DNA from: an uncultured Chloroflexia bacterium
GTDB taxonomy: Bacteria > Chloroflexota > Limnocylindria > QHBO01
Assembly (NCBI GenBank): GCA_963814375.1
Contig: CAWFCQ010000004.1
Coordinates: 224,001-288,000, forward strand
Reading direction: 5' to 3'
Length of the DNA stretch: 64,000 bases
The position numbers and the translations under genes were made by a program. The first letter of the stretch is position 1, and every line of letters begins with the position of its first letter. This document shows, piece by piece, positions 22,838-34,487 of this stretch. The notes under the pieces are model-generated. The model did not search any database, was not told the DNA's origin, and was given only the letters and a program-made list of their open reading frames with translations.

Positions 22838-23500
22838 ATGCCATCTGTGCCGCGCCCCGCAGCGATCGTGTTCGACCTCGACGGGACCCTGGTGGACACG
22901 GTCGATGCGCGCATCGCCGGCTGGGAGGAGGTCTTCGCGCAGGACGGCATCCCGGTGACCCGCGAGCAGCTGAAGCCGATGATCGGCATGGATGGCCGCC
23001 GGCTGGCGATCGCTGCCGCGGCGTCGGTGGGGGTTCAGGTCGACGAGGACGACGCGGCCGAGATCGACCGCCGGGCGGGCGCGCTGTTCGACCGCCACAA
23101 CCGCGACCCACGGCCGCTCAGCGGCGCTCGCTCCGCGCTGGCGCGCCTCGACGCCGCCGGCGTGACGTGGGCGATCGCCACCTCCTCGCGCGCGGAGCAG
23201 GTGACGGCGTCGCTTGCGGCGCTGGACCTCGCGACGTCGCCTCGCATCGTCGACGGCAGCTCGGTGGCGAACGCGAAGCCCGAGCCGGACCTGCTGCTCA
23301 AGGCAGCCGAGGAGCTCGGGGTGGCACCTGCCGGCTGCTGGTACGTGGGCGACTCGACGTGGGACATGCTGGCGGCGGTCGCCGCAGGGATGCATCCGGT
23401 TGCCGTGCTCGCCGGCGCCGCCGTTGACCGCGAGGCGCTGGAGGAAGCCGGGGCTGCCGTCGTCCTCGACACCCTCGACCAGCTCGAGATCGGGCGCTGA
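22838..23500 (+). CDS. HAD family hydrolase
   Basis: FDLDGTLVDT, KPEPD and VGDSTWD motifs. Confidence 0.9.
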   Translation: MPSVPRPAAIVFDLDGTLVDTVDARIAGWEEVFAQDGIPVTREQLKPMIGMDGRRLAIAAAASVGVQVDEDDAAEIDRRAGALFDRHNRDPRPLSGARSALARLDAAGVTWAIATSSRAEQVTASLAALDLATSPRIVDGSSVANAKPEPDLLLKAAEELGVAPAGCWYVGDSTWDMLAAVAAGMHPVAVLAGAAVDREALEEAGAAVVLDTLDQLEIGR

Positions 23501-23504
23501 TCCG

Positions 23505-26093
23505 ATGCCGCTGGAGGAGTATCGGCGCAAGCGCGACTTCGAGGTCACGCCGGAGCCGGCGCCCGGCGATGTCGTGGCGCGCAGCGGGCGCTTCACCGTC
23601 CAGCGCCACCGCGCCACCGCGCTGCACTACGACTTCCGCCTCGAGATCGATGGCGTGCTCGTCAGCTGGGCCGTTCCGAAGGGACCGACCCTCGACTCAC
23701 GCGCCCGGCGCCTGGCGATGCGGACCGAGGATCACCCAATCGAGTACCTCCCATTCGAGGGCGTGATCCCGGCCAAGGAGTACGGCGGCGGTGACGTCAT
23801 CGTCTGGGACTGGGGCATCTTCGAGCCCGAGGACGAGACCCCTGACCCGGCCAAGGGTCTGCGCCGGGGCGAGATAAAGTTCATCCTCCACGGCGAGCGG
23901 CTCCACGGCCGCTACACGATCATCCGCACCGACTCCGACGACGGCCGCGAGCGCTGGCTGCTGCTGAAGAAGAAGGACGAGGCCGCGATCGAGGGCTGGG
24001 ATGCCGAGGACCACCCGGCCAGCGCCAAGACGGGCCGCACGAACGACGAGGTGCGCGATGGTGTCGCGCCGCGCTTCACCGCCGATCCGCCGCGAGCGCC
24101 CGGCGAGATCGATCTTGCCGCCGCGCGGGAGGCGCCGATGCCGGACTTCATCCCGCCGATGCGGGCGACCCTCGCCACCGATCCGTTCGACGATCCCGAC
24201 TGGGTGTTCGAGGTGAAGTGGGATGGATACCGGGTCGAGGCCGTGGTGCGCGACGGCGCGGCGAAGCTCTGGACGCGCAATCGCCAGGATGCCGCACGCT
24301 ACTTCCCCGAGCTGGCGGGGGAGACATCCTGGATCGCCGCCAAGCAGGCGATCGTGGACGGCGAGGTGGTTGCCCTCGACGAGCAGGGCCGCCCGCGATT
24401 CAGCCTGCTCCAGGACCGGACCGGCATCCATACCGGCCGAGTGCCGGGGACAAACCGACGGGGACCGCCGGCGCCGGTCGTGTACCAGGCCTTCGACCTG
24501 CTCCACCTCGACGGCCGCTCGCTGCTCGGGGTCCCGCTCGAGGAGCGGAAGCGCCTCCTCCGCAGTGTCCTTCGTCCGCACCCACGAGTGAAGTACGCCG
24601 GCCACATCGAGGCGAATGGGACCGATGTATTCCGCGCCGCCCGCGATCAGGAGCTCGAGGGCATCGTGGCCAAGCTCAAGCGCTCCCCATATGAGCCAGA
24701 CCGGCGGAGCCGGTCGTGGCTCAAGCTCAAGGCCAGGCGTGAGCAGGAGGTCGTCGTCGTCGGCTGGCTGCCGGGCCAGGGGACGCACACCGACATCGGC
24801 TCGCTCATCGTCGCCGTGCGCTCCGGCGAGCGGTGGGCGCACGCCGGCCAGGTCGGCAGCGGGATCAACACGAGGACCCGGCGCGAGCTCCATCGGCAGC
24901 TGGAGGAGATGGAACGGCCCGACCCGCCGCTCGATCCCGCGCCGCGGCTCAAGGGAGCGCGCTGGGTCGAGCCGCGGCTCGTCGCGCGCGTCGAGTTCGC
25001 GGATTGGACGGCGGAGAATCTCCTGCGCCAGGCCGCCTTCAAGGGGATCGAGGCCGGCCGTGACCCGCGCACCGTCCGGCGCGAGCGTGCGGTGGCCACC
25101 TCGCGAGCCACTGCGGAGGCAGAACGGACCCATACTGAACGGCCGATGCGAGCAGCCGATGACGCCGTCGCCGCGCTCGATGCCCTGGAGCGCGAGGGCA
25201 CGTGGAACGTGGATGGTCGGGAGATCCGCGTCACGAACCTCGACAAGGTGCTGTTCACGCCGGTCGAAGGCGGAACGCCGGTGACGAAGCGCGACCTGCT
25301 CCGCTATCACGTGCAGGTGGCACCCACGCTCGTGCCGTACCTGGCCGGCCACGGGCTGACGGTCCAGCGCTACCCCAACGGGATCGAGTCGAAGGGGTTC
25401 TGGCAGAAGGACCTGCCGAAGCACGCCCCCGACTGGATCGAGCGCTGGACGTACCACCACCGGGAGGAGGGGCCGAAGGACTACGTCGTCGTCGACTCGG
25501 CCGCGACCCTGGCGTGGCTGGCGCAGGAGGCGGCGATCGAGCTCCATCCCTGGACCAGCACGACCGATGCACCCGACCGGCCCAGCTACGCCCTGATCGA
25601 CATCGATCCCGGGCCGGAGACGGCCTGGGAGGAGGTCGTCACGCTGGCGCGCCTGTATCGGACCGCGCTCGGCCATCTCGGGGTCGCCGGCCATCCCAAG
25701 GTCACCGGCAAGCGCGGCATCCAGGTCTGGATCGGCATCGAGCGCGGGCCCACCTTCCATGAGACGAGCGCGTGGGTGGAGGGCCTCTCACGAGCGGTCG
25801 GCAGCACGGTCCCGGACCTCGTCAGCTGGGAGTGGGCGAAGCGCGCGCGCAAGGGCAAGGCCCGGCTCGACTACACCCAGAACGCGATCAACAAGACCCT
25901 CGTCGCGCCGTACAGCACCCGTCCGGCTCCCGGCGCCCCGGTCAGCATGCCGTTCGCGTGGGACGAGCTCGACGACCCCGCCCTCCGCCCGGATCGCTGG
26001 ACGATCGCCGATGCCATCGAGCGGATTCGGGAGGCCGGTGACCCGTTCGCGCCGGTCCTCACTGATCGCCAGCCGTTGCCACCGCTCGGCTGA
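23505..26093 (+). CDS. ligD: NHEJ DNA ligase D (phosphoesterase-ligase-polymerase)
   Basis: 'HYDFRLE..SWAVPKGP', 'EVKWDGYR', 'EGIVAK', 'TNLDKVL', 'DIDP'. Confidence 0.95.
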   Translation: MPLEEYRRKRDFEVTPEPAPGDVVARSGRFTVQRHRATALHYDFRLEIDGVLVSWAVPKGPTLDSRARRLAMRTEDHPIEYLPFEGVIPAKEYGGGDVIVWDWGIFEPEDETPDPAKGLRRGEIKFILHGERLHGRYTIIRTDSDDGRERWLLLKKKDEAAIEGWDAEDHPASAKTGRTNDEVRDGVAPRFTADPPRAPGEIDLAAAREAPMPDFIPPMRATLATDPFDDPDWVFEVKWDGYRVEAVVRDGAAKLWTRNRQDAARYFPELAGETSWIAAKQAIVDGEVVALDEQGRPRFSLLQDRTGIHTGRVPGTNRRGPPAPVVYQAFDLLHLDGRSLLGVPLEERKRLLRSVLRPHPRVKYAGHIEANGTDVFRAARDQELEGIVAKLKRSPYEPDRRSRSWLKLKARREQEVVVVGWLPGQGTHTDIGSLIVAVRSGERWAHAGQVGSGINTRTRRELHRQLEEMERPDPPLDPAPRLKGARWVEPRLVARVEFADWTAENLLRQAAFKGIEAGRDPRTVRRERAVATSRATAEAERTHTERPMRAADDAVAALDALEREGTWNVDGREIRVTNLDKVLFTPVEGGTPVTKRDLLRYHVQVAPTLVPYLAGHGLTVQRYPNGIESKGFWQKDLPKHAPDWIERWTYHHREEGPKDYVVVDSAATLAWLAQEAAIELHPWTSTTDAPDRPSYALIDIDPGPETAWEEVVTLARLYRTALGHLGVAGHPKVTGKRGIQVWIGIERGPTFHETSAWVEGLSRAVGSTVPDLVSWEWAKRARKGKARLDYTQNAINKTLVAPYSTRPAPGAPVSMPFAWDELDDPALRPDRWTIADAIERIREAGDPFAPVLTDRQPLPPLG

Positions 26094-26703: not shown

Positions 26704-26726
26704 CTGAGACGCCCACGGCGGGCAAC

Positions 26727-26760
26727 AAAAACGGGGCCCTTCGGGGCCCCGTTTCGCTTT
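26727..26760. terminator. Bidirectional intrinsic terminator
   Basis: AAACGGGGCCC-TTCG-GGGCCCCGTTT perfect 11-bp stem between convergent nfuA and peptide genes. Confidence 0.9.
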
Positions 26761-26762
26761 GC

Positions 26763-26888
26763 CTAGCGGCGAAGCGGGAAGTCGCCCCCGCCCGTTGCCG
26801 CCAACACGGTCGAGGCGAGGGTGAGGATGCTCAGGGCCGCCGCCGAGCCGGCAACCACGAGCGATCGAAGGATTCGACGTGTGCGCAT
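26763..26888 (-). CDS. 41-aa secreted pre-peptide, candidate signalling pheromone
   Basis: TAAGGAG RBS; MRTRRILRSLVVAGSAAALSILTLASTVLA|ATGGGDFPLRR; own terminator. Confidence 0.8.
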   Translation of the reverse strand: MRTRRILRSLVVAGSAAALSILTLASTVLAATGGGDFPLRR

Positions 26889-27014
26889 CGGTCCTGTGCT
26901 CCTTAGATGGTGCGGCCGAAGGCTTGGTCGGGGAGTGGCCGCGCTCGTGCGCAACCCTCCCCCCGATGGGACCAACCGGCAATGACCCGGGAGTCCCGCC
27001 ACCGATGCAGTGGG

Positions 27015-27069
27015 GTGGTACTTTCGGTCTGGGCCCTTGTCAAGTCATGCTTGCCAAGACGTGTAGACT
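27015..27069. promoter_or_regulatory. Divergent promoters and candidate operator
   Basis: Minus strand TTGACA-N17-TACCAC; plus strand TAGACT 6 nt before ATG 27076; CTTGTCAAG-N5-CTTGCCAAG. Confidence 0.6.
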
Positions 27070-27075
27070 GCCGCC

Positions 27076-28374
27076 ATGCCCAGAACCAGGACCGGCGCCC
27101 GCGCCCCCGAAAAGGACCGCGAGCTTGCGCGGCGGATCGGCCTCCGTATCCGCGAAGCCCGTCATCGCGCCGGCATGACCCAGCAGCAGCTCGCCGGCGA
27201 GCGCTACACAAAGGCATACGTGAGCGCCCTCGAGACGGGGATCGCCCGGCCCTCGATGGTCGCTCTCAGCTTCCTCTGCGAGCGCCTCGGCCTGCCGGCC
27301 AGCCACTTTATCGACGAGGCCAATCCGGTGTGGACGCGGCTCGAGGTCGACATGCGCCTCGCCGCCGGCGACTGGCAGACGGCAGCCGACGGCTACGAGA
27401 GCCTTCTCGCCGACGCGTCCGACGACTCGATGCGCGCCGACCTGCTCCGCGGCCTGGCCGAGGCATCGGCGCGTCTCGACCGCGGCACCGAGGCGATCGC
27501 GGCCGCTTCGGAGGCGACGCGCATCTACGCAGCCGCCGGGCGTGAGGCCGATGCCGCGCTGGCGCGCTACTGGATGGCATACGGCCTCTATCAGTCCGAC
27601 AACGAGCTCGATGCCCGCAGCGTCCTGACGGCGCTGCTCGAGCAGGTGCGTGGCGGGCTCCACGTCGAGCCGGACTTCGAGATGCGGCTTCTCACCTCGC
27701 TGGCGGCGGTCGAGTCGCGAGCCGGGCAGCCGTCGCGGGCGCTCACATACCTGGAGGAGGCGCGAGGGCTGGCCGCCGACCTCGACGACCGGCGGCGGGC
27801 CGCATTCCTCTTCAACCTGGCCATCAACTACCGCGAGGTCGGCGACTTCGAGGCGGCCATCCGGGCCGGCACGCAGGGCATGGCGCTCTATCGAGCTGCG
27901 GGCGCGATCTTCGAGTCAGCTCGGATCGAGAACGACCTGGCCCTGGCCTACCTCGCCACCGGGCAGATCGAGCGCGCGCGCGAGCTGGCCTCCGACGCGC
28001 GCCACCAGATTGAAGAAACCGGCGACGAGCGTTGGATGGCCGCAGTGGTCGACACCGAGGCACAGGTCGCCCTTGCCAGCGGGGACGTGGACGAGGCGCT
28101 GCGCCTGGCCAGCGTGGCGCGCGGCCACGCGGCCCGCAGCGGCAACGAGTTCAACGGGCTGATGGCGATGCTGACCGAGGCTCGCGCCCTGCGTGTCGGT
28201 GGCCGCAACGCCGAGGCCGAGGAGCGCTTCGCGGAGGCCGCCACGATCGCCCGAGCCAGCCGAGCACCAAGCCGGCTCCGCGAGGTCCTGCGGGAGTGGG
28301 CCGACCTTCGCGCCGAGTCAGGTGATCACCGCGGCGCCTACGAGCTCTCGAGCGAGGCGCTCGCGGTCAATTGA
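27076..28374 (+). CDS. XRE-HTH + TPR transcriptional regulator (RRNPP-like)
   Basis: 'IGLRIREAR..MTQQQLA..AYVSALETG..RPS' HTH followed by TPR-like helices (FNLAINY, ENDLALAY). Confidence 0.85.
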   Translation: MPRTRTGARAPEKDRELARRIGLRIREARHRAGMTQQQLAGERYTKAYVSALETGIARPSMVALSFLCERLGLPASHFIDEANPVWTRLEVDMRLAAGDWQTAADGYESLLADASDDSMRADLLRGLAEASARLDRGTEAIAAASEATRIYAAAGREADAALARYWMAYGLYQSDNELDARSVLTALLEQVRGGLHVEPDFEMRLLTSLAAVESRAGQPSRALTYLEEARGLAADLDDRRRAAFLFNLAINYREVGDFEAAIRAGTQGMALYRAAGAIFESARIENDLALAYLATGQIERARELASDARHQIEETGDERWMAAVVDTEAQVALASGDVDEALRLASVARGHAARSGNEFNGLMAMLTEARALRVGGRNAEAEERFAEAATIARASRAPSRLREVLREWADLRAESGDHRGAYELSSEALAVN

Positions 28375-28377
28375 GTG

Positions 28378-28407
28378 TTGACAGGTGCGGTCGGGGGACC
28401 GTACGCT
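28378..28407 (+). promoter_or_regulatory. Sigma70-type promoter for putative sRNA
   Basis: TTGACA-N18-TACGCT with no credible ORF downstream. Confidence 0.7.
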
Positions 28408-28412
28408 GTCGG

Positions 28413-28484
28413 CCGACGAGTCGGATGGGCACGCCGACTTGCCTGACGGGATCGGAGATGGGGCACGTCTCCGGTCCCTTTTCG
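28413..28484 (+). ncRNA. Putative two-hairpin small RNA
   Basis: GAGTCGG-ATGGGCACG-CCGACTT and GGGATCGGAGATG-GGGCA-CGTCTCCGGTCCC-TTTT; repeated apical motif. Confidence 0.65.
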
Positions 28485-28503
28485 CGTCCCATTCGCGTTC
28501 CCA

Positions 28504-29130
28504 TCAGGGGCTCGCCGAGCCACTCGGCACCGGTTCGACCAGCGTGAACGTCCCCCCGGCGATCGGCGCGGCGTTGGGGTCAAGGTGGATCCGCATCTCG
28601 TAGGTCCCGGCGCCCCACGCGTCGAGTAGCGCCGCCGCTGCGACCGTGAAGCCGATCACGGTCCGATCGTCGGGGACGGTCTGCGCCTCGACCGGCGCCT
28701 GGACCTGCTCGCTGGGCGATGGATCGATGCGCTGCACCTCGACGAAGATCGCGGCCGCCGCCGGCGATCCCGCCACGGCATAGGCGAAGGTGTCGCCACG
28801 GGCGAAGCGATCGGTTTCCGAGCCGTCTGCGATGGCGCCGCTGGGGGCGAGGGCTGCGCCGAACTCGATCGGCAGCAGCTCTGCGCCGGTGCCAGCGGCG
28901 GACGGGCTCGCGCCGGGTGCGGCCGTGTCACCCTCGCCACCCAGCAGCCGCACGATCCCCGCCACGCCGAGGATGAGGACCACGGCGACCAGCCAGCCGC
29001 CGATCCGCATGGCCCGCGGCGACAGCGAGATCCGACGTCCGGGACCGGGCCGTCGCGCCATCGACCGGTTTCGGAGGGGCCGCAGACGCTGTCGGATCGC
29101 CGAGGCCTGACCGCGACTGCCGGTGCTCAT
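28504..29130 (-). CDS. Hypothetical membrane-anchored protein
   Basis: Basic N-terminus, one TM helix, beta-rich C-domain; start uncertain. Confidence 0.65.
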   Translation of the reverse strand: MSTGSRGQASAIRQRLRPLRNRSMARRPGPGRRISLSPRAMRIGGWLVAVVLILGVAGIVRLLGGEGDTAAPGASPSAAGTGAELLPIEFGAALAPSGAIADGSETDRFARGDTFAYAVAGSPAAAAIFVEVQRIDPSPSEQVQAPVEAQTVPDDRTVIGFTVAAAALLDAWGAGTYEMRIHLDPNAAPIAGGTFTLVEPVPSGSASP

Positions 29131-29176
29131 CTGCACCGTCCACTGTATCGGGGCGGTGCACGGTACGATGGGCCTC

Positions 29177-29704
29177 ATGACACGGCGGCTGTTCATCTTC
29201 GACGAACCCGATCGATTCGTGGCCGGCACGGTCGGTCAGCCCGGCGATCGGGCCTTCTACCTCCAGGCTCGGAAGGGCGGCGCGCTGGTCAGCGTCGGCA
29301 TCGAGAAGGTGCAGGTCGCCGTGCTCGCCCAGCGACTGGATGACCTGCTCGACGCCGTCGATGCGCCCGCAGGCGCCGAACCCGGCGAGGAGCACGGGCT
29401 CGAGGAGCCTGTCGTCGAGCTGTTCCGTGTCGGAGCCATGGCGCTTGCATGGGACGCGGGCACCGGCGCCGTGGTGATCGAGGCTCAGACGCCGACCGAG
29501 GACGGGGAGTACGCCGAGCTGCCTGATGACGCCGATGATGGACCCGACCTGCTCAGGGTCCGGATCGACGCAACCAACGCTCGCGGCTTCGTGCGCCGAG
29601 CTGAGGCTCTCGTGGGCGCCGGGCGCCCGGCCTGCCCGTTCTGCGGCCAGCCGCTCGACGCGCAGGGCCACTTCTGCGCGCGCGGCGACGGCCAGCTCAA
29701 CTGA
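29177..29704 (+). CDS. DUF3090 family protein
   Basis: 'GTVGQPGDRAFYLQA..EKVQV..GRPACPFCGQPLD..GHFC'. Confidence 0.88.
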   Translation: MTRRLFIFDEPDRFVAGTVGQPGDRAFYLQARKGGALVSVGIEKVQVAVLAQRLDDLLDAVDAPAGAEPGEEHGLEEPVVELFRVGAMALAWDAGTGAVVIEAQTPTEDGEYAELPDDADDGPDLLRVRIDATNARGFVRRAEALVGAGRPACPFCGQPLDAQGHFCARGDGQLN

Positions 29705-29708
29705 GCTG

Positions 29709-30302
29709 ATGGTCGAGCCGCTCGACCCACCGCTTCGGGTCGACTGGCTCGACGCCGACGACGTCGGAGACGGGCTCCCCGGCCGGCTGGGGTTGACCTT
29801 CCTTCCCGGCAAGCACGGCGCTTCGACGCGCTATCCCGGGCGCGTCTATCGCCGTGAGCTGAGCCGCGACCTGGCGAGCCTGCGTGGCTCCGGCGTGCGT
29901 CTGCTGCTCCTCCTGGTCGAGGATCACGAGCTGGAGCGCTGGGGGGAGCCGGAGATCGTCGCCCGAGCCGCTGAGGCGGGGCTGCGCATCGAGCGCCGCC
30001 CGGTGCCCGACGGTCACGCGCCGGCATCGGTCACGGAGATGGACGCGATGATCGCCACGCTGACCGGCGTGCGAAGGTCTGGCGACGTGGCGGTGGCGTG
30101 CATGGGAGGCGTGGGTCGAACCGGGATGGTCGCCGCCTGCGCGCTCGTGTCGGGCGGACGCGCCGCCGCCGACGCGATCGTCCGGGTGCGGGCGGTGCGG
30201 CATCCGACCGCCGTGGAGACGGCGGAGCAGGTCGCCTTCGTCCGTGCCTACGAAGGTCACATTGCCACGAGGGACCCTCGCTCGGGTACGGTGGCGACAT
30301 GA
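29709..30302 (+). CDS. Cys-based dual-specificity phosphatase (CDKN3-like)
   Basis: CX5R motif 'ACMGGVGRTG' and 'AVETAEQ'. Confidence 0.88.
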   Translation: MVEPLDPPLRVDWLDADDVGDGLPGRLGLTFLPGKHGASTRYPGRVYRRELSRDLASLRGSGVRLLLLLVEDHELERWGEPEIVARAAEAGLRIERRPVPDGHAPASVTEMDAMIATLTGVRRSGDVAVACMGGVGRTGMVAACALVSGGRAAADAIVRVRAVRHPTAVETAEQVAFVRAYEGHIATRDPRSGTVAT

Positions 30303-30931
30303 ACGAGCGATGGGTCTGCAAGCGCTGCTTCGCCGACAACGAGGCATCGAGCGGCGCCTGTGTGAAGTGTGGGCTGACGCGCGGCGCGGAATCGAGCGAG
30401 TCGGACCGCGCCACCTGGGTCGCGGCGTCGCCCGCGGGGGCGCCGGCCGAGCGCCCGGCCTGGCAGCGGTGGCTGCGCTACTGGTGGGTGCCGGCACTGG
30501 CGGTCGTGCTGCTGGTCGGGTATTTCGCGAGCGCCCGTCGCGGGGATGACGGCTCGCTTGAGAACGCCGGGACGCTCAGCGTCGAGGATCTCCGGACCGG
30601 TGACTGCTTCAACGGTGGGGACGAGACCGAGATCAGCGACGTGGACGGCGTGCCATGCACCGAGGCACACGAGTACGAGGTCTTCGCGGTCGCGACGCAC
30701 GAAGCCGAGTCGCTTCCGACCGATACGGAGATGGATGGCATCTTCATCTCCCGGTGCGAGCCGCCATTCGAGGCCTTCGTCGGCACCCCCTACGCCGAGT
30801 CCGAGCTCTACGGCTCGATGATCACCCCTTCGGAGGAATCCTGGAACGACGGGGACCGGAGCTTCGTCTGCATCCTCTACGACCCCGAGAATCCCGAGCT
30901 CACGTCGTCGATGCAGGGTGCGAACCGCTAG
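30299..30931 (+). CDS. RanBP2-type Zn finger + TM + septum-formation-like domain protein
   Basis: 'WVCKRCFADN..CVKCG'; 'GDCF..VPCTEAHEYEV..PSEESWNDGDR..C'. Confidence 0.8.
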   Translation: MNERWVCKRCFADNEASSGACVKCGLTRGAESSESDRATWVAASPAGAPAERPAWQRWLRYWWVPALAVVLLVGYFASARRGDDGSLENAGTLSVEDLRTGDCFNGGDETEISDVDGVPCTEAHEYEVFAVATHEAESLPTDTEMDGIFISRCEPPFEAFVGTPYAESELYGSMITPSEESWNDGDRSFVCILYDPENPELTSSMQGANR

Positions 30932-33900
30932 CGGTTTCCGCGAGCTCCGCGAACTGGCATAGCGCGTTCGCCAGCCGCATCTGCGCCGGCGTTCTGGCTC
31001 GAACCCGAAGCAGGGCGGGTTCGGCGACCACGACCGCGACACACCGCGCCCGAGAGGTGGCGACGTTGAGCCGGTTCCGGGAGTACAGGAAGCCCATGCC
31101 ACGTGGCGCGTCCTCCGGCGAGCTGGACGTCATCGAATAGATGCTGACCGGCGCCTCCTGACCCTGGAACTTGTCGACCGTGCCGACTCGCGCCTCCGGC
31201 GGCAGAAGCGCGGCGATCGCCCCGACCTGGGCGTTGTAGGGGGCGACGACGAGTACCTCGCGGTACGTGATGGGGTGTTCCAAGCCGTCCTTGTCAATCC
31301 ATGTCGATCGACTGTCGACGATGGCGCGCACGAGCCCAGCCACCTGGTGCGCTTCCTCGGCGGAGATGCTGTCAGCGCCGACGTGATCGGCCGCGACCAG
31401 GCGTATGCCGGAGCCTCGCATCGGCTCCGGGCCGAACAGGCGCTGGGTCTCCAGGTTCGGACGTGACGCGAGTTTGCGCTCGTAGAACGCAGTTGATGTA
31501 AACGCCGTTACCGCGGGATGGAGCCGCCACGTGTGCTGGAGGAACAGGCCGAGCTCCTCCGGGATCGCGTCGTGTTCGCCGAGCAGGTGTGCCAGCGCCG
31601 AGCGATCCGCACCCGGCGGGTGCGAACCCTGGAGCGGCTGCTCGAGCTGCTGCGGGTCGCCGAGGAGCACGATGGAACGCGCCCCGCCGGACATGGCCAG
31701 CACGTTGGCCAGCGACATCTGCCCGGCCTCGTCGACGAAGAGGACATCGACGATCTCGCGGCTCGTGTCGGCTGCCCACAGCCAGACCGTGCCGGCGGCA
31801 ACGTTGAATCGACCGCGGGCGAGTCCGTCCTGCACGGCCGCGTTGTCTCCCACGTGCGTCACCCGGTCGTCCTCTGCCCGCGCTGAGCCGTCCGATACCT
31901 TCTGAGCGGCGCGCACCTCGACGACGCCGGTGGCTGCGGCGAGGACCTCCTCGAGAAAGTGCGTGATCACCTTGTGGCTCATGGCGCTGATGCCGATGCT
32001 CCGTCCCTCGCCCAGAAGCCGGACCGCCATCCTCGCACCGGTGTATGTCTTGCCAGACCCCGGTGGCCCCTGGATGGCGAGGGTGCCCTCGTCAAGTGTC
32101 GTGACGAGGCGGCACGCCGCGTCGAGGCCGGACTCGCCGGGCATGCTCAGAGGGCTGTCCACGCCCCGCTCGCGCCGCGGCGGACGGCGCAGGAGGAGGT
32201 CGCGACCGGCTCTCCATGGCCCGTCAGCGTCGACTCCGTTCGCGGCCACCCACTCGCCCAATGCCAGGAGTGCCGCGCGCTGGTCCCTGTCGTTGAAGGT
32301 GTCGAGCGGGACCAGCGATTCGGGGTGCTGGGGCTCCACGCCGGGCGGCCAGTTGAGCTCGACGAACGACGCCTTGTCGTCGATCTGGTGCAGCCCACCC
32401 TTGACCAGCCACGTCTTCCATGGCTCGCCGGGGAACTGACGATGAAGCCGCGGGTCATAGAGGGCGGATCGACCGCCGATGTCGTAGTCCTGCGGCGCGA
32501 ACTGGTAGCGCCAGGTCTGGCGGAGGTTCGACCTCGGAGTCGGGCGCCATGGGTCGCCGACCGGGCCGACGAGCTCGAGCGGCCCGAGCGCCCCCTTGTC
32601 AGCGGTCAGGTCGCCCTCGTCCAGACCGAGGCGATGGAAGAACTCCCAATAGGCGACCTTGCTCTCACGCCGGTGCCACGCCAGGAGCTGAGCGAGCAGC
32701 CACCTCGCCTGCTGCTCTTCGTCGCGCTCGACAGGGTCATCGGGGACCCCGGAAGTGAGGGCCCCGGCCACCTCCTCCACACGTGCATCCGAGGCGGCCG
32801 TCGAGACCGGCGCGTCGGGAGAGACCTCCGACGGGCGCGGCACGTCCCGCCCGGTCGCCCCGCCCAGCTCGACCCGCAAAAGCTCCAACCAGTCGCGGAG
32901 GGCCAGAGTGCTACGCACGTCGTCTCGGTTGTAGGCCGCGATGGCGTCGAGGATGTCCGATGACGGACGTTCCCCGTCCGCCAGCTGGAGCCATTCCTCG
33001 AAGGCAACGATGCTCGAGCCAGCGTCGCGAAGCTCGACCTCGCGCACGAAGTCATACATCGGCTCGAGCCGCTTGATCGAATAGCTCTCGACTGAGGCCC
33101 GAAGGCCCTGGCGGACCGCTCGGAACAGGTCGACCAGGACACCGCCGCGCAGAAGTCGGTCCACCTCGTCCTCGCGAGTGGCGTGGCGACCCATGAGGCG
33201 CCTGAGGGCGGTCGGCTCGTATGGCGCGTAGTGGTAGACGTGCATGTTCGGGAAACGCTCGAGCCGATCGGTCAGGAGGTCCATCAGCCGCTCGAACGCC
33301 GCCCGCTCGCCGGCGAGCGTCACGTCGCTCGGATCGAGCGGGTCGAACGACCAGATCGCCGTGAAGGTGCCGTCCAGGTCCAGGACTCCGAACAGGTAGT
33401 CGATCCCGTCATCGAGTGCGTAGGGATCGCCTTCGAGGTCGAGGAACAGGTCGCCGGGGTCCGGCTCGGGAAGAATGGTCAGGCCTCGCTCGGGCTCGAT
33501 CTGAGCGTCGGGCTTCGGGAGCAGGAGCTCGTAGATCGGCCGTGCCAGCCCGCGACCGGCGACCTGGATGCGTGCCTGCTCGCGCACGCGCTCGATGCTG
33601 GCGGCGCTGGAGCCGTCGAGCGGTGGATCGAGCGGGATCGGCGCGGCCGCGAGGCGTTCGACCGTATCGATCTGGCGCGCGGCCAGGGCCTTGCGTTGAC
33701 GAGCGTTGATGCCGGCAACGAGGGAGAGGTGGTCGTCGTCGCGCCTCCGCTGCACGCAGAGCTCCGCCCAGCGGCACACGTCGCAGTGATCGACGGGCTC
33801 CGGGTACGTCGCAGTCGGTGGGTAGGTCGCTGGCGGAGCTGGCGCGAGATCGGTCCCCAGCACCGCCTCCTCGAAGCGGGTTCTGGCCGCGTGGTAGTAC

Positions 33901-34487
33901 GCCATGTAGTCCTCGACCCGGAGCGTGGCGGTCTCTCGCGCGCTGCCGCCGAGGACGACTCGCATCTCCTGCGGGCGCACACCTTGAATGCGCTCGAGCT
34001 GGTCGACGTACGAGCAGATCTGAAGGACCGCGCCGGCTTTGACGTGCCTGGCCAGCTTCGTGTCCGCCACTTCGTAATGGTACGGACCCCACACCGATGG
34101 GTGCTGCGGCGACTCGACGCGCAGCAGGAAGTCCGCGTAGCCCAGCCAGCGGCCGTCGAAGAAGGTGGCCTGGAACACGGCGGCGACGCCGGAGGCCATG
34201 GCATCGATCGTCTCGGCCGCCTGGAGGCGCAGACGCTCGCCGCGCTCATCGCCCTCGTGGCGATCGATCTCGGCAACGCGGAGGCCTTGCGCGCGCAGGT
34301 CGGCCAGATAGCGCGCCTCGTGCTCGAAGCCTCGCCGCCGAATGACATCCAGCTCGCGGTCCTCTCGCATCGGCCGCGCGACGAGCCCGGCAAGGGCTGC
34401 CCGCTCGAGCGCCGTGAGGTGCTCGCAGGCCAGGTAGCCGACGAGGTCAGTTGCGGAGAAGACGGGCTTGCCGTCGATGAGCTGCAT
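30900..34487 (-). CDS. TM0106-family RecB-like nuclease / SF1 helicase
   Basis: 'ADFL..EVADTKLA', RNase H-like 'DLEG..YSIK..YNRDD', GPPGSGKT, DEAGQ, TVDKFQGQE. Confidence 0.9.
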   Translation of the reverse strand: MQLIDGKPVFSATDLVGYLACEHLTALERAALAGLVARPMREDRELDVIRRRGFEHEARYLADLRAQGLRVAEIDRHEGDERGERLRLQAAETIDAMASGVAAVFQATFFDGRWLGYADFLLRVESPQHPSVWGPYHYEVADTKLARHVKAGAVLQICSYVDQLERIQGVRPQEMRVVLGGSARETATLRVEDYMAYYHAARTRFEEAVLGTDLAPAPPATYPPTATYPEPVDHCDVCRWAELCVQRRRDDDHLSLVAGINARQRKALAARQIDTVERLAAAPIPLDPPLDGSSAASIERVREQARIQVAGRGLARPIYELLLPKPDAQIEPERGLTILPEPDPGDLFLDLEGDPYALDDGIDYLFGVLDLDGTFTAIWSFDPLDPSDVTLAGERAAFERLMDLLTDRLERFPNMHVYHYAPYEPTALRRLMGRHATREDEVDRLLRGGVLVDLFRAVRQGLRASVESYSIKRLEPMYDFVREVELRDAGSSIVAFEEWLQLADGERPSSDILDAIAAYNRDDVRSTLALRDWLELLRVELGGATGRDVPRPSEVSPDAPVSTAASDARVEEVAGALTSGVPDDPVERDEEQQARWLLAQLLAWHRRESKVAYWEFFHRLGLDEGDLTADKGALGPLELVGPVGDPWRPTPRSNLRQTWRYQFAPQDYDIGGRSALYDPRLHRQFPGEPWKTWLVKGGLHQIDDKASFVELNWPPGVEPQHPESLVPLDTFNDRDQRAALLALGEWVAANGVDADGPWRAGRDLLLRRPPRRERGVDSPLSMPGESGLDAACRLVTTLDEGTLAIQGPPGSGKTYTGARMAVRLLGEGRSIGISAMSHKVITHFLEEVLAAATGVVEVRAAQKVSDGSARAEDDRVTHVGDNAAVQDGLARGRFNVAAGTVWLWAADTSREIVDVLFVDEAGQMSLANVLAMSGGARSIVLLGDPQQLEQPLQGSHPPGADRSALAHLLGEHDAIPEELGLFLQHTWRLHPAVTAFTSTAFYERKLASRPNLETQRLFGPEPMRGSGIRLVAADHVGADSISAEEAHQVAGLVRAIVDSRSTWIDKDGLEHPITYREVLVVAPYNAQVGAIAALLPPEARVGTVDKFQGQEAPVSIYSMTSSSPEDAPRGMGFLYSRNRLNVATSRARCVAVVVAEPALLRVRARTPAQMRLANALCQFAELAETASGSHPASTT

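Follow-up and report, generated by a model that had tools for sequence, protein, structure and literature searches.

The window analysed here is a 64,000-nucleotide stretch of DNA, positions 224001 to 288000 of contig C4 of genome G000 (2.5 Mb, 69.7% G+C), and the subject of this report is a cassette within it that comprises a small pre-peptide gene (P1), a gene for a regulator with a helix-turn-helix (HTH) domain and tetratricopeptide repeats (TPRs) (R), and a small RNA (sRNA). An earlier, sequence-only reading of this DNA had proposed that these parts form a peptide signalling system of the RRNPP type, with a possible RNA output as in the arbitrium system. Close homologues of R are labelled "Candidatus Limnocylindria bacterium" in their source records, Limnocylindria being a class within Chloroflexota. 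Comparisons were based on 20 loci from the same genus, 18 of which had sufficient upstream flank, and on a wider set of 80 loci from named metagenome-assembled genome (MAG) records, collected with an 11-sequence alignment of regulators, in which R was 65-90% identical; 74 of these loci had flank. The wider set overlaps partly with the genomes of the first 20 loci, and the non-redundant set comprised 87 regulators. One row of the same-genus comparisons (L009) came from an unpublished genome, G006; the public record L065 encodes an identical peptide, so that no conclusion hinges on G006. In the orthologous loci examined, P1, R, the sRNA, and two palindromic sites, described below, co-occurred.

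The peptide gene, the regulator, and the small RNA

P1 is located on the minus strand (26763..26888) and encodes a 41-aa pre-peptide with a basic N-terminus, a hydrophobic core of about 20 residues, a Val-x-Ala site directly before the tail, and a tail made up of a Gly-rich core ending in Asp-Phe-Pro and a variable basic end; the N-terminal features were read by eye and with a crude script filter. A Shine-Dalgarno (SD) sequence, AAGGAG (26899..26904, minus strand), is found 10 nt before the ATG, and the gene is followed by an intrinsic terminator with a 12-bp stem and a U-run (26722..26757, minus strand; -29.7 kcal/mol, z -3.15), the hairpin of which can also end the convergent, plus-strand NifU-like gene. 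A simple terminator scan did not pick up this hairpin. P1 is divergent from R, and the two genes are 187 nt apart.

A divergent open reading frame (ORF) of 39-43 aa occupied the same place upstream of the regulator in all 18 same-genus loci with flank. Counterparts were present in all 74 wider loci with flank: 49 had a signal-like N-terminus (37-41 aa), and 25 consisted of 12 codons. SD-like motifs preceded the P1 start in the listed wider loci. The short form characterized one group: in 25 of 25 loci P1 had exactly 12 codons, lay at the same position, and combined a strong SD with a core of the same type. In the same-genus loci, the entropy of P1 by codon position was 0.39, 0.26, and 0.77, and within core codons 31-38 the third position varied in seven of eight codons, with two of eight varying at the first position and one of eight at the second. 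The pooled pN/pS was 0.405 when P1 was read in its own frame, with 1.33 and 1.74 for the two alternative frames. The conserved part was the Gly-rich core ending in Asp-Phe-Pro, with variation on either side of it, in the signal-like part and past the Pro; judged by these codon patterns, purifying selection acts on the amino-acid sequence of this core with its aromatic-Pro end. A strict signal-type filter passed 28 ORFs in the 2.5-Mb genome, corresponding to 0.011/kb, and missed the second peptide gene described below.

Several other identities for P1 were considered and rejected. A Tat signal was discarded since the Arg-Arg pair is not conserved among orthologues. A precursor of a lasso peptide or another ribosomally synthesized and post-translationally modified peptide was discarded because no maturation genes adjoin P1 and its leader is hydrophobic and signal-like. 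A role in ribosome arrest or as a leader peptide was likewise set aside, given that a terminator follows P1, that there is no downstream gene on its strand, and that the stop codon comes anywhere from 0 to 5 codons after the Pro. One class of peptides (P1 in L081, L084, L085, L098, and L106; the second peptide gene in L192-L195) had an invariant Cys after the predicted cleavage site, with Ala-Ala before it. Because Ala-Ala-Cys resembles a lipoprotein lipobox, the mature peptide could be lipid anchored in that class.

R (27076..28374, plus strand) encodes 432 aa, with an XRE-type HTH (residues ~12-80) followed by ~18 TPR-type helices (~86-432), as delimited by Pfam matches and an AlphaFold2 (AF2) model. 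The Pfam matches were HTH_31 (E 1.7e-8), HTH_3 (E 4.9e-6), and TPR_12, and the model, built from a 37-sequence alignment, had a pLDDT of 88.8 and showed the HTH followed by the helices. All 24 of the same-genus genomes had R, as did all 12 of the same-family genomes sampled; a 50%-identity representative library contained 121 matching clusters at E <= 1e-30 and, with the threshold relaxed to E <= 1e-3, 5497. Identity between peptide classes was 76-83% for the HTH, compared with 63-66% for the TPR part, a difference that fits a shared operator with differing ligands, and the recognition-helix region was invariant in all 87 regulators. Among the Asn residues of the TPR helices, to which the sequence-only reading had drawn attention, N286 was the sole one invariant in the 11-sequence alignment, and it was not invariant across the 87 regulators. 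Metatranscriptome contigs from three runs in two studies matched parts of the R gene over 151-163 nt with 0-1 differences; libraries of this kind may contain DNA. P1 and the sRNA were covered by none of the contigs, which is uninformative. In two same-genus genomes (G008:C12:7500-8780 and G016:C1:43131-44425), the regulator was in several pieces or had an internal TGA; these copies may be pseudogenes or assembly errors.

Two palindromic sites are associated with the cassette. Site 1 (27039..27055) is a near-palindrome, GTCAA-N7-TTGCC, with one mismatch, and starts 37 nt upstream of the R ATG. Site 2 (28366..28382) is GTCAA-N7-TTGAC, a perfect palindrome that overlaps the last codons of R with its left half and supplies the -35 box of the sRNA with its right half. 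Site 1 (<=1 mismatch) was found at -37 to -40 of R in 71 of 74 loci and site 2 at the sRNA promoter in 70 of 74, the listed copies of site 2 being almost all exact. At both sites the half-sites were fixed and the 7-nt spacers free. The left half-site of site 2 was kept even where it lay beyond the stop codon and is therefore a DNA signal, not a coding constraint. Site 2 was the only exact copy of the palindrome in the 2.5-Mb genome, and four simulated genomes contained 0, 0, 0, and 1 copies. Paralogues and distant homologues of R carried related palindromes before their own starts.

A -10-like hexamer, TAGACT (27064..27069, plus strand), is located 6-7 nt before the R ATG, and its TA-N3-T pattern was kept in 18 of 18 loci. 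Because of this position and the absence of an SD, the R mRNA is predicted to be leaderless; site 1 would then span approximately -37 to -21 relative to the predicted start. Site 2 would be centred at approximately -41 if the sRNA starts near 28415, as predicted. The intergenic region also contains two blocks, each with GTAC (26960..27028), that are ~35-40 nt apart and conserved across all peptide classes. These blocks are explained neither by the palindrome nor by the assigned promoters, and they are candidates for promoter or 5' untranslated region elements of P1 or for a second regulator promoter.

The region downstream of R is the best-conserved DNA of the locus. Positions 28375-28484, between R and a convergent membrane-protein gene, were nearly invariant in 20 of 20 same-genus loci and contain the sRNA of ~70 nt (28415..28484, plus strand) and its promoter (28378..28407, plus strand), a conserved -35/-10 pair with TTGACA, an 18-nt spacer, and TACGCT. 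The order of elements was the same in all 20 loci: palindrome, -35 box TTGACA, 17-18-nt spacer, TA-N3-T, 6-8 variable bases, and the ~70-nt segment. An automatic rule recovered, in 68 of 80 loci, the -35 box together with a TA-N3-T hexamer spaced 17-18 nt from it; in the 12 misses the rule had picked another TTGAC. The segment folds into two hairpins (-38.7 kcal/mol, z -3.67) with GGGCAC in both loops, and in this genus a T-run follows the 3' hairpin. A hidden Markov model (HMM) of the sRNA matched downstream of R, on the same strand, in 100 of 100 orthologous loci and was single-copy in G000; it had no match in 20 f3 (a further family), paralogue, or distant loci.

In other genera the sRNA takes a form of ~100 nt. 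Among 34 such long forms, the 5' helix had compensatory changes in six of eight pairs; 32 cells were changed on both sides, compared with 9.9 +/- 2.9 in shuffles (none of 500 shuffles reached the observed value), and 95.9% of cells were paired, compared with at most 52.8% when the partners were slid. The 3' hairpin and its GGGCAC loop were invariant and thus uninformative on structure, and this constraint on the sequence itself suggests a specific function for the hairpin and loop. The long form (L081-L119) has a G-rich single-stranded linker, five G followed by AG, before the 3' hairpin. No T-run follows that hairpin in the long forms, and it may therefore be more than a terminator in those genera. 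Coding potential of the sRNA was rejected since the loop AUG of this genus is absent in other clades. In Rfam, the sole match in the window above the gathering threshold was a tRNA, and an E-value search of 28340-28520 gave only matches far below threshold.

These results bear out the parts list of the sequence-only reading, which had named a 41-aa ORF with a ribosome-binding site and terminator, a Sec-type signal with a Val-Leu-Ala site before the tail (recovered as a signal-like N-terminus with Val-x-Ala), a divergent 432-aa HTH-TPR protein, and an sRNA, now with a covarying helix and its own conserved promoter.

A second peptide gene and the wider family of regulator-peptide pairs

A genome search with the P1 core identified a second gene, P2, which encodes a 39-aa pre-peptide on the minus strand of another contig of G000 (C8:129875-129994, equivalent to L159:3376-3495). 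Its core is identical to that of P1, and its signal-like N-terminus and tail are unrelated to those of P1. P2 is flanked by an EamA-family transporter gene and a fused E1 dehydrogenase gene, a position conserved across genera, and it was found at this EamA/E1 locus in eight further same-genus genomes. Back-translated core patterns gave exactly two matches per genome and zero control matches in five of five genomes of one class and four of five of another, with the second match at the EamA/E1 locus, where there is no adjoining regulator. In four genomes with a 12-codon P1, P2 was on the opposite strand between EamA and E1.

The two genes were compared over the last 16 residues before every stop, in all six frames of both loci of each genome. 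The longest string common to the P1 and P2 loci was the 7-11-residue core in 21 of 21 genomes, the N-terminal parts being unrelated, and the shared strings included positions that differ between genomes. The P2 of a genome matched its own P1 at least as well as did the P2 of any other genome in 16 of 21 cases, nine of them strictly better, and the median shared length was 9 in matched and 6 in mismatched genomes. Since the shared core includes lineage-specific positions, the two unlinked genes appear to keep one lineage-specific mature peptide of ~8 residues ending in aromatic-Pro. Furthermore, P1 and P2 both keep a signal-like N-terminus in the genus of the window and in most classes, despite their otherwise unrelated N-terminal sequences, which argues that export is selected there.

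Pairing of a regulator with a pre-peptide gene extended beyond the close orthologues. Orthologues of family f3 (~50% identity) had a divergent 40-41-aa pre-peptide gene with a related tail in four of four cases, and same-genus paralogues (45-48% identity) had a 35-aa pre-peptide gene, downstream and convergent, with a different, Pro-rich tail in eight of eight. Among distant regulators in the class (~30% identity), 12 of 19 loci had an ORF that passed the signal-type filter within ~600 bp, 11 upstream and 1, doubtful, downstream. For other Chloroflexota families, 20 loci were fetched, of which 3 had no tblastn match and 1 had no flank; 12 of the 16 usable loci passed the filter, again with 11 upstream and 1 doubtful downstream ORF, the ORFs being 26-34 aa. 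The background of this filter, measured in G000 only, was 0.042/kb or 0.053 per locus scanned, and the nominal binomial P for 12 of 19 is 1.7e-11, a value to be read with the fact that related genomes are not independent. Beside one distant HTH-TPR homologue, a 60-aa pre-peptide (L128:2138-2320, minus strand) carried an 8-residue tail motif twice in tandem; RRNPP propeptides holding multiple peptides have been described (PMC9765709).

In a tree of the 87 regulators, the peptide classes corresponded to clades with SH-aLRT values of 96-100; one signal-less locus, L119, was placed apart from the main signal-less clade of 24 rows, in a part where the tree is unresolved. An adjacent signal-peptide ORF with a Gly-rich, aromatic-Pro tail beside regulator homologues, as anticipated from the sequence of the window, was thus found to co-occur with the regulator and to co-vary with both the regulator clade and P2.

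The surroundings of the cassette are chromosomal and of a housekeeping character. In the window, the neighbours in order are a three-domain LigD gene (phosphoesterase, ligase, and primase-polymerase; 23214-26093), a DUF3090 gene (29123-29704), a dual-specificity-phosphatase-like gene (29526-30302), a Septum_form-domain gene (30098-30931), and an ORF of 1195 aa on the minus strand (30900-34487). The gene order LigD, [NifU], P1, R, sRNA, membrane protein, DUF3090, phosphatase was kept across genera, and the order LigD, DUF3090, phosphatase also recurred in another genus (L103). Next to the cassette, no phage genes were seen. Eight cassette contigs (L046, L047, L049, L053, L057, L084, L110, and L117) belong to MAGs labelled Steroidobacteraceae, Binatia, or Angelobacter; for these Limnocylindria-type contigs, mis-binning or mislabelling is likely.

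Proposed circuit and competing explanations

The interpretation favoured here, and held to be somewhat probable, is that the cassette is a chromosomal peptide-receptor-sRNA signalling module in which the peptide is read by R and the sRNA is the output. Its computed basis consists of the conserved unit, the selection on the core, the matched cores of two genes, an NprR/Rap-like fold, a palindrome shared by two promoters, and a structured sRNA. In such a module, the P1 and P2 pre-peptides would be exported by the Sec pathway and cut by signal peptidase I after the Val-x-Ala site, releasing a short peptide whose active part would be the Gly-rich core of ~8 residues ending in aromatic-Pro. The peptide would accumulate extracellularly and would enter cells through an Opp/Dpp-type ABC importer; five SBP_bac_5 loci are present in the genome, none of them adjacent to the cassette, and the family was present in 11 of 14 control genomes. 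The imported peptide would bind the concave face of the TPR superhelix of R. A dimer of R would recognise GTCAA-N7-TTGAC, as the conserved sites support, at one site over the -35 box of the sRNA and at another between P1 and R, across the predicted leaderless promoter of R. Peptide binding would change the occupancy of both sites, and the output would be the ~70-nt sRNA, along with feedback to R and, probably, to P1. Because both operators overlap core promoter elements, repression by apo-R that is relieved by the peptide is favoured, as a weaker guess.

A number of observations weigh against this interpretation. Export, processing, import, and binding to R are inferred steps, and the putative signal peptide of P1 was called by eye and with a crude filter. 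The promoter of P1 is not assignable from conservation. The operator motif showed no genome-wide enrichment (19 sites with <=1 mismatch in G000, compared with 14-22 in simulated genomes), no wider regulon was visible, and none of the 19 sites is near P2. Vertical descent confounds the co-variation of peptide class and regulator clade, all parts being in conserved synteny. R also resembles unrelated TPR proteins at least as closely as it does Rap and NprR: Foldseek with the R model placed LGN/Pins first (E 3e-9), with PlcR following at rank 32 and Rap proteins between ranks 34 and 50, and in searches of the R profile against Protein Data Bank sequences RapH (4.6e-10), RapJ (5.9e-8), and NprR (2e-6, 155 residues) scored less well than designed TPRs, Pins/LGN, and AfsR. 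A prediction of the complex of R with the 41-aa pre-peptide scored 0.25 against a mark of 0.32, without controls, and counts neither way.

In the lineages with a 12-codon P1, no hydrophobic segment was present in the P1 ORF or in the upstream reading frame, and P2 was also short (16-22 codons) and non-hydrophobic. In addition, an EcsB/PptB-type exporter (PF05975) had no match in any of the three genomes searched, the completeness of two of which is unknown, and no exporter gene is adjacent to the cassette. The extracellular route is consequently unsupported in those lineages, and the existence of signal-less lineages shows that Sec export is not essential to the system, which would use another route or act intracellularly there. 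The phrase "exported and re-imported" cannot hold alike everywhere, since one or two lineages have both peptide genes signal-less.

If the cassette is taken as a rival account would have it, the peptide acts in the same cell as an intracellular ligand, in a private feedback loop or timer, at least where P1 has 12 codons and P2 has 16-22, and perhaps in all lineages should the C-terminus of the pre-peptide be read ahead of export. Besides the short, non-hydrophobic gene products and the lack of an exporter match just described, a 2026 preprint reporting that peptides of this kind, expressed intracellularly with their cognate factors, regulate gene expression (PMC13692066) favours this account. 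The signal-like N-termini that P1 and P2 keep in the genus of the window and in most classes speak against it. Rgg/SHP and ComR/ComS peptides, moreover, are exported although they have no classical signal peptides. The intracellular account is considered quite improbable.

An unlikely, though somewhat stronger, contender is that R regulates the peptide gene and the sRNA without having the peptide as its ligand. Some other protein or a metabolite would occupy the TPR domain, and the secreted peptide would have its effect elsewhere, for instance through a membrane sensor, in other cells, or as a small peptide of the membrane or surface. The binding of the peptide to R is only inferred, and the top fold matches of R are protein-binding TPRs (LGN and APPBP2), tied with the RRNPP receptors. 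P2 is unlinked, none of the 19 operator-like sites is close to it, and the matching cores of P1 and P2 show selection for one mature peptide, not the identity of its reader. Set against this, an HTH-TPR protein is paired with a short pre-peptide gene again and again, in four or more gene orders and among paralogues of 25-50% identity across the phylum, a recurrence that would be difficult to account for if the two products did not act jointly. The TPR part also diverges more than the HTH between peptide classes, as would be expected if it read a changing peptide.

Spurious ORFs abound in high-GC DNA, and the crude signal filter passed 0.46 ORFs/kb; P1 might on these grounds be a chance open frame in 70% G+C DNA and the downstream element a mere terminator of the regulator. 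This explanation is hardly credible, because frame, length class, start, SD, and core were conserved in every locus with flank, the codon-position pattern and pN/pS fit the P1 frame only, a second gene has the same core, and the element downstream comes with a conserved -35/-10 pair of its own and with covariation in its 5' helix.

A broader proposal can be put forward only tentatively and is rather doubtful as a whole. Chloroflexota may hold a large, unrecognised radiation of HTH-TPR receptors with peptide mini-genes, and in at least one Limnocylindria lineage both peptide genes may have shed their export signal, leaving a peptide of ~12 aa as the intracellular ligand of a TPR regulator that drives an sRNA, a private circuit derived from a quorum-sensing ancestor.

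Relation to known systems and significance

By function and layout, the module proposed here is closest to NprR-NprX in receptor architecture and to arbitrium in its sRNA output. The NprX gene is downstream of and co-directional with NprR in the Bacillus cereus group, whereas P1 is upstream of R and divergent. The module also differs in its occurrence in Chloroflexota rather than Bacillota, in its visible sRNA output, and in its second, unlinked peptide gene, and it has no sequence relationship with NprR beyond generic HTH and TPR similarity, the match to NprR being weaker than that to designed TPRs. Of the RRNPP architecture ascribed to the locus by the sequence-only reading, the HTH, the TPR superhelix, and the adjacent propeptide gene were all found, and common descent was not demonstrable. 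In the structural comparison, the model of the TPR domain aligned over its full length with NprR and Rap receptors, which were among the top matches and tied with generic TPR proteins. Pfam and NCBIfam contained no RRNPP family-specific match for R. On sequence and model, R thus has the architecture and fold of an NprR-type receptor, and its common descent with RRNPP receptors is not demonstrable beyond that generic similarity.

The likeness to arbitrium (AimR-AimP-aimX of Bacillus phages) held in part. Shared features are a small RNA, a receptor that joins an HTH to TPRs, and a pre-peptide in which a signal peptide precedes a short active peptide at the C-terminus. In arbitrium the promoter region of the small RNA carries the operator of the receptor, and here one palindrome is common to the sRNA promoter and the region upstream of R. 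The phage-borne, lysis-lysogeny side of the comparison did not hold: the module is chromosomal, vertically inherited, and in housekeeping synteny, not phage-borne, and its gene order is different. Its sRNA had no Rfam match, and its putative active core has ~8 residues ending in aromatic-Pro.

Like the Rgg-SHP and ComR-ComS systems of streptococci, the module has a very short, divergent or adjacent peptide gene beside a receptor with an HTH and helical repeats, and the 26-34-aa pre-peptides of other Chloroflexota families and the signal-less ORFs of 12-22 codons resemble Rgg-SHP and ComR-ComS peptides in size. It differs from these systems in the absence of an EcsB/PptB match in the three genomes searched and in its canonical TPR_12 repeats; ComR matched R through the HTH only. 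The same was true of PlcR, of the PlcR-PapR system (E 0.0011 with a single sequence, 3e-9 with the profile). The Rap proteins of Rap-Phr systems have no HTH, whereas R has one.

RRNPP-type signalling has been presented as a trait of Bacillota and their mobile elements (PMC10075063). No report of RRNPP or propeptide systems in Chloroflexota or Limnocylindria was found in the literature searched; the supplementary tables of PMC10075063 and PMC9765709 may list non-Bacillota candidates. The cassette would accordingly be described as an RRNPP-like, arbitrium-like module in a new phylum, and it differs from the known systems in its phylum, in having no demonstrable homology to their receptors, and in its chromosomal housekeeping context, unrelated sRNA, dual peptide genes, and loss of the signal peptide in some lineages.

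If the proposed module is real, it would widen the known range of peptide communication to an abundant uncultured class of soil and freshwater bacteria, with relatives across Chloroflexota, and it would provide a defined set of receptor, ligand, and operator that can be tested in vitro without culturing. The peptide classes would form a natural series in which the ligand core changes together with the receptor and the export signal is lost, a series useful for studying the evolution of signalling specificity and privacy. The sRNA would represent a new, strongly conserved family with a likely regulator.

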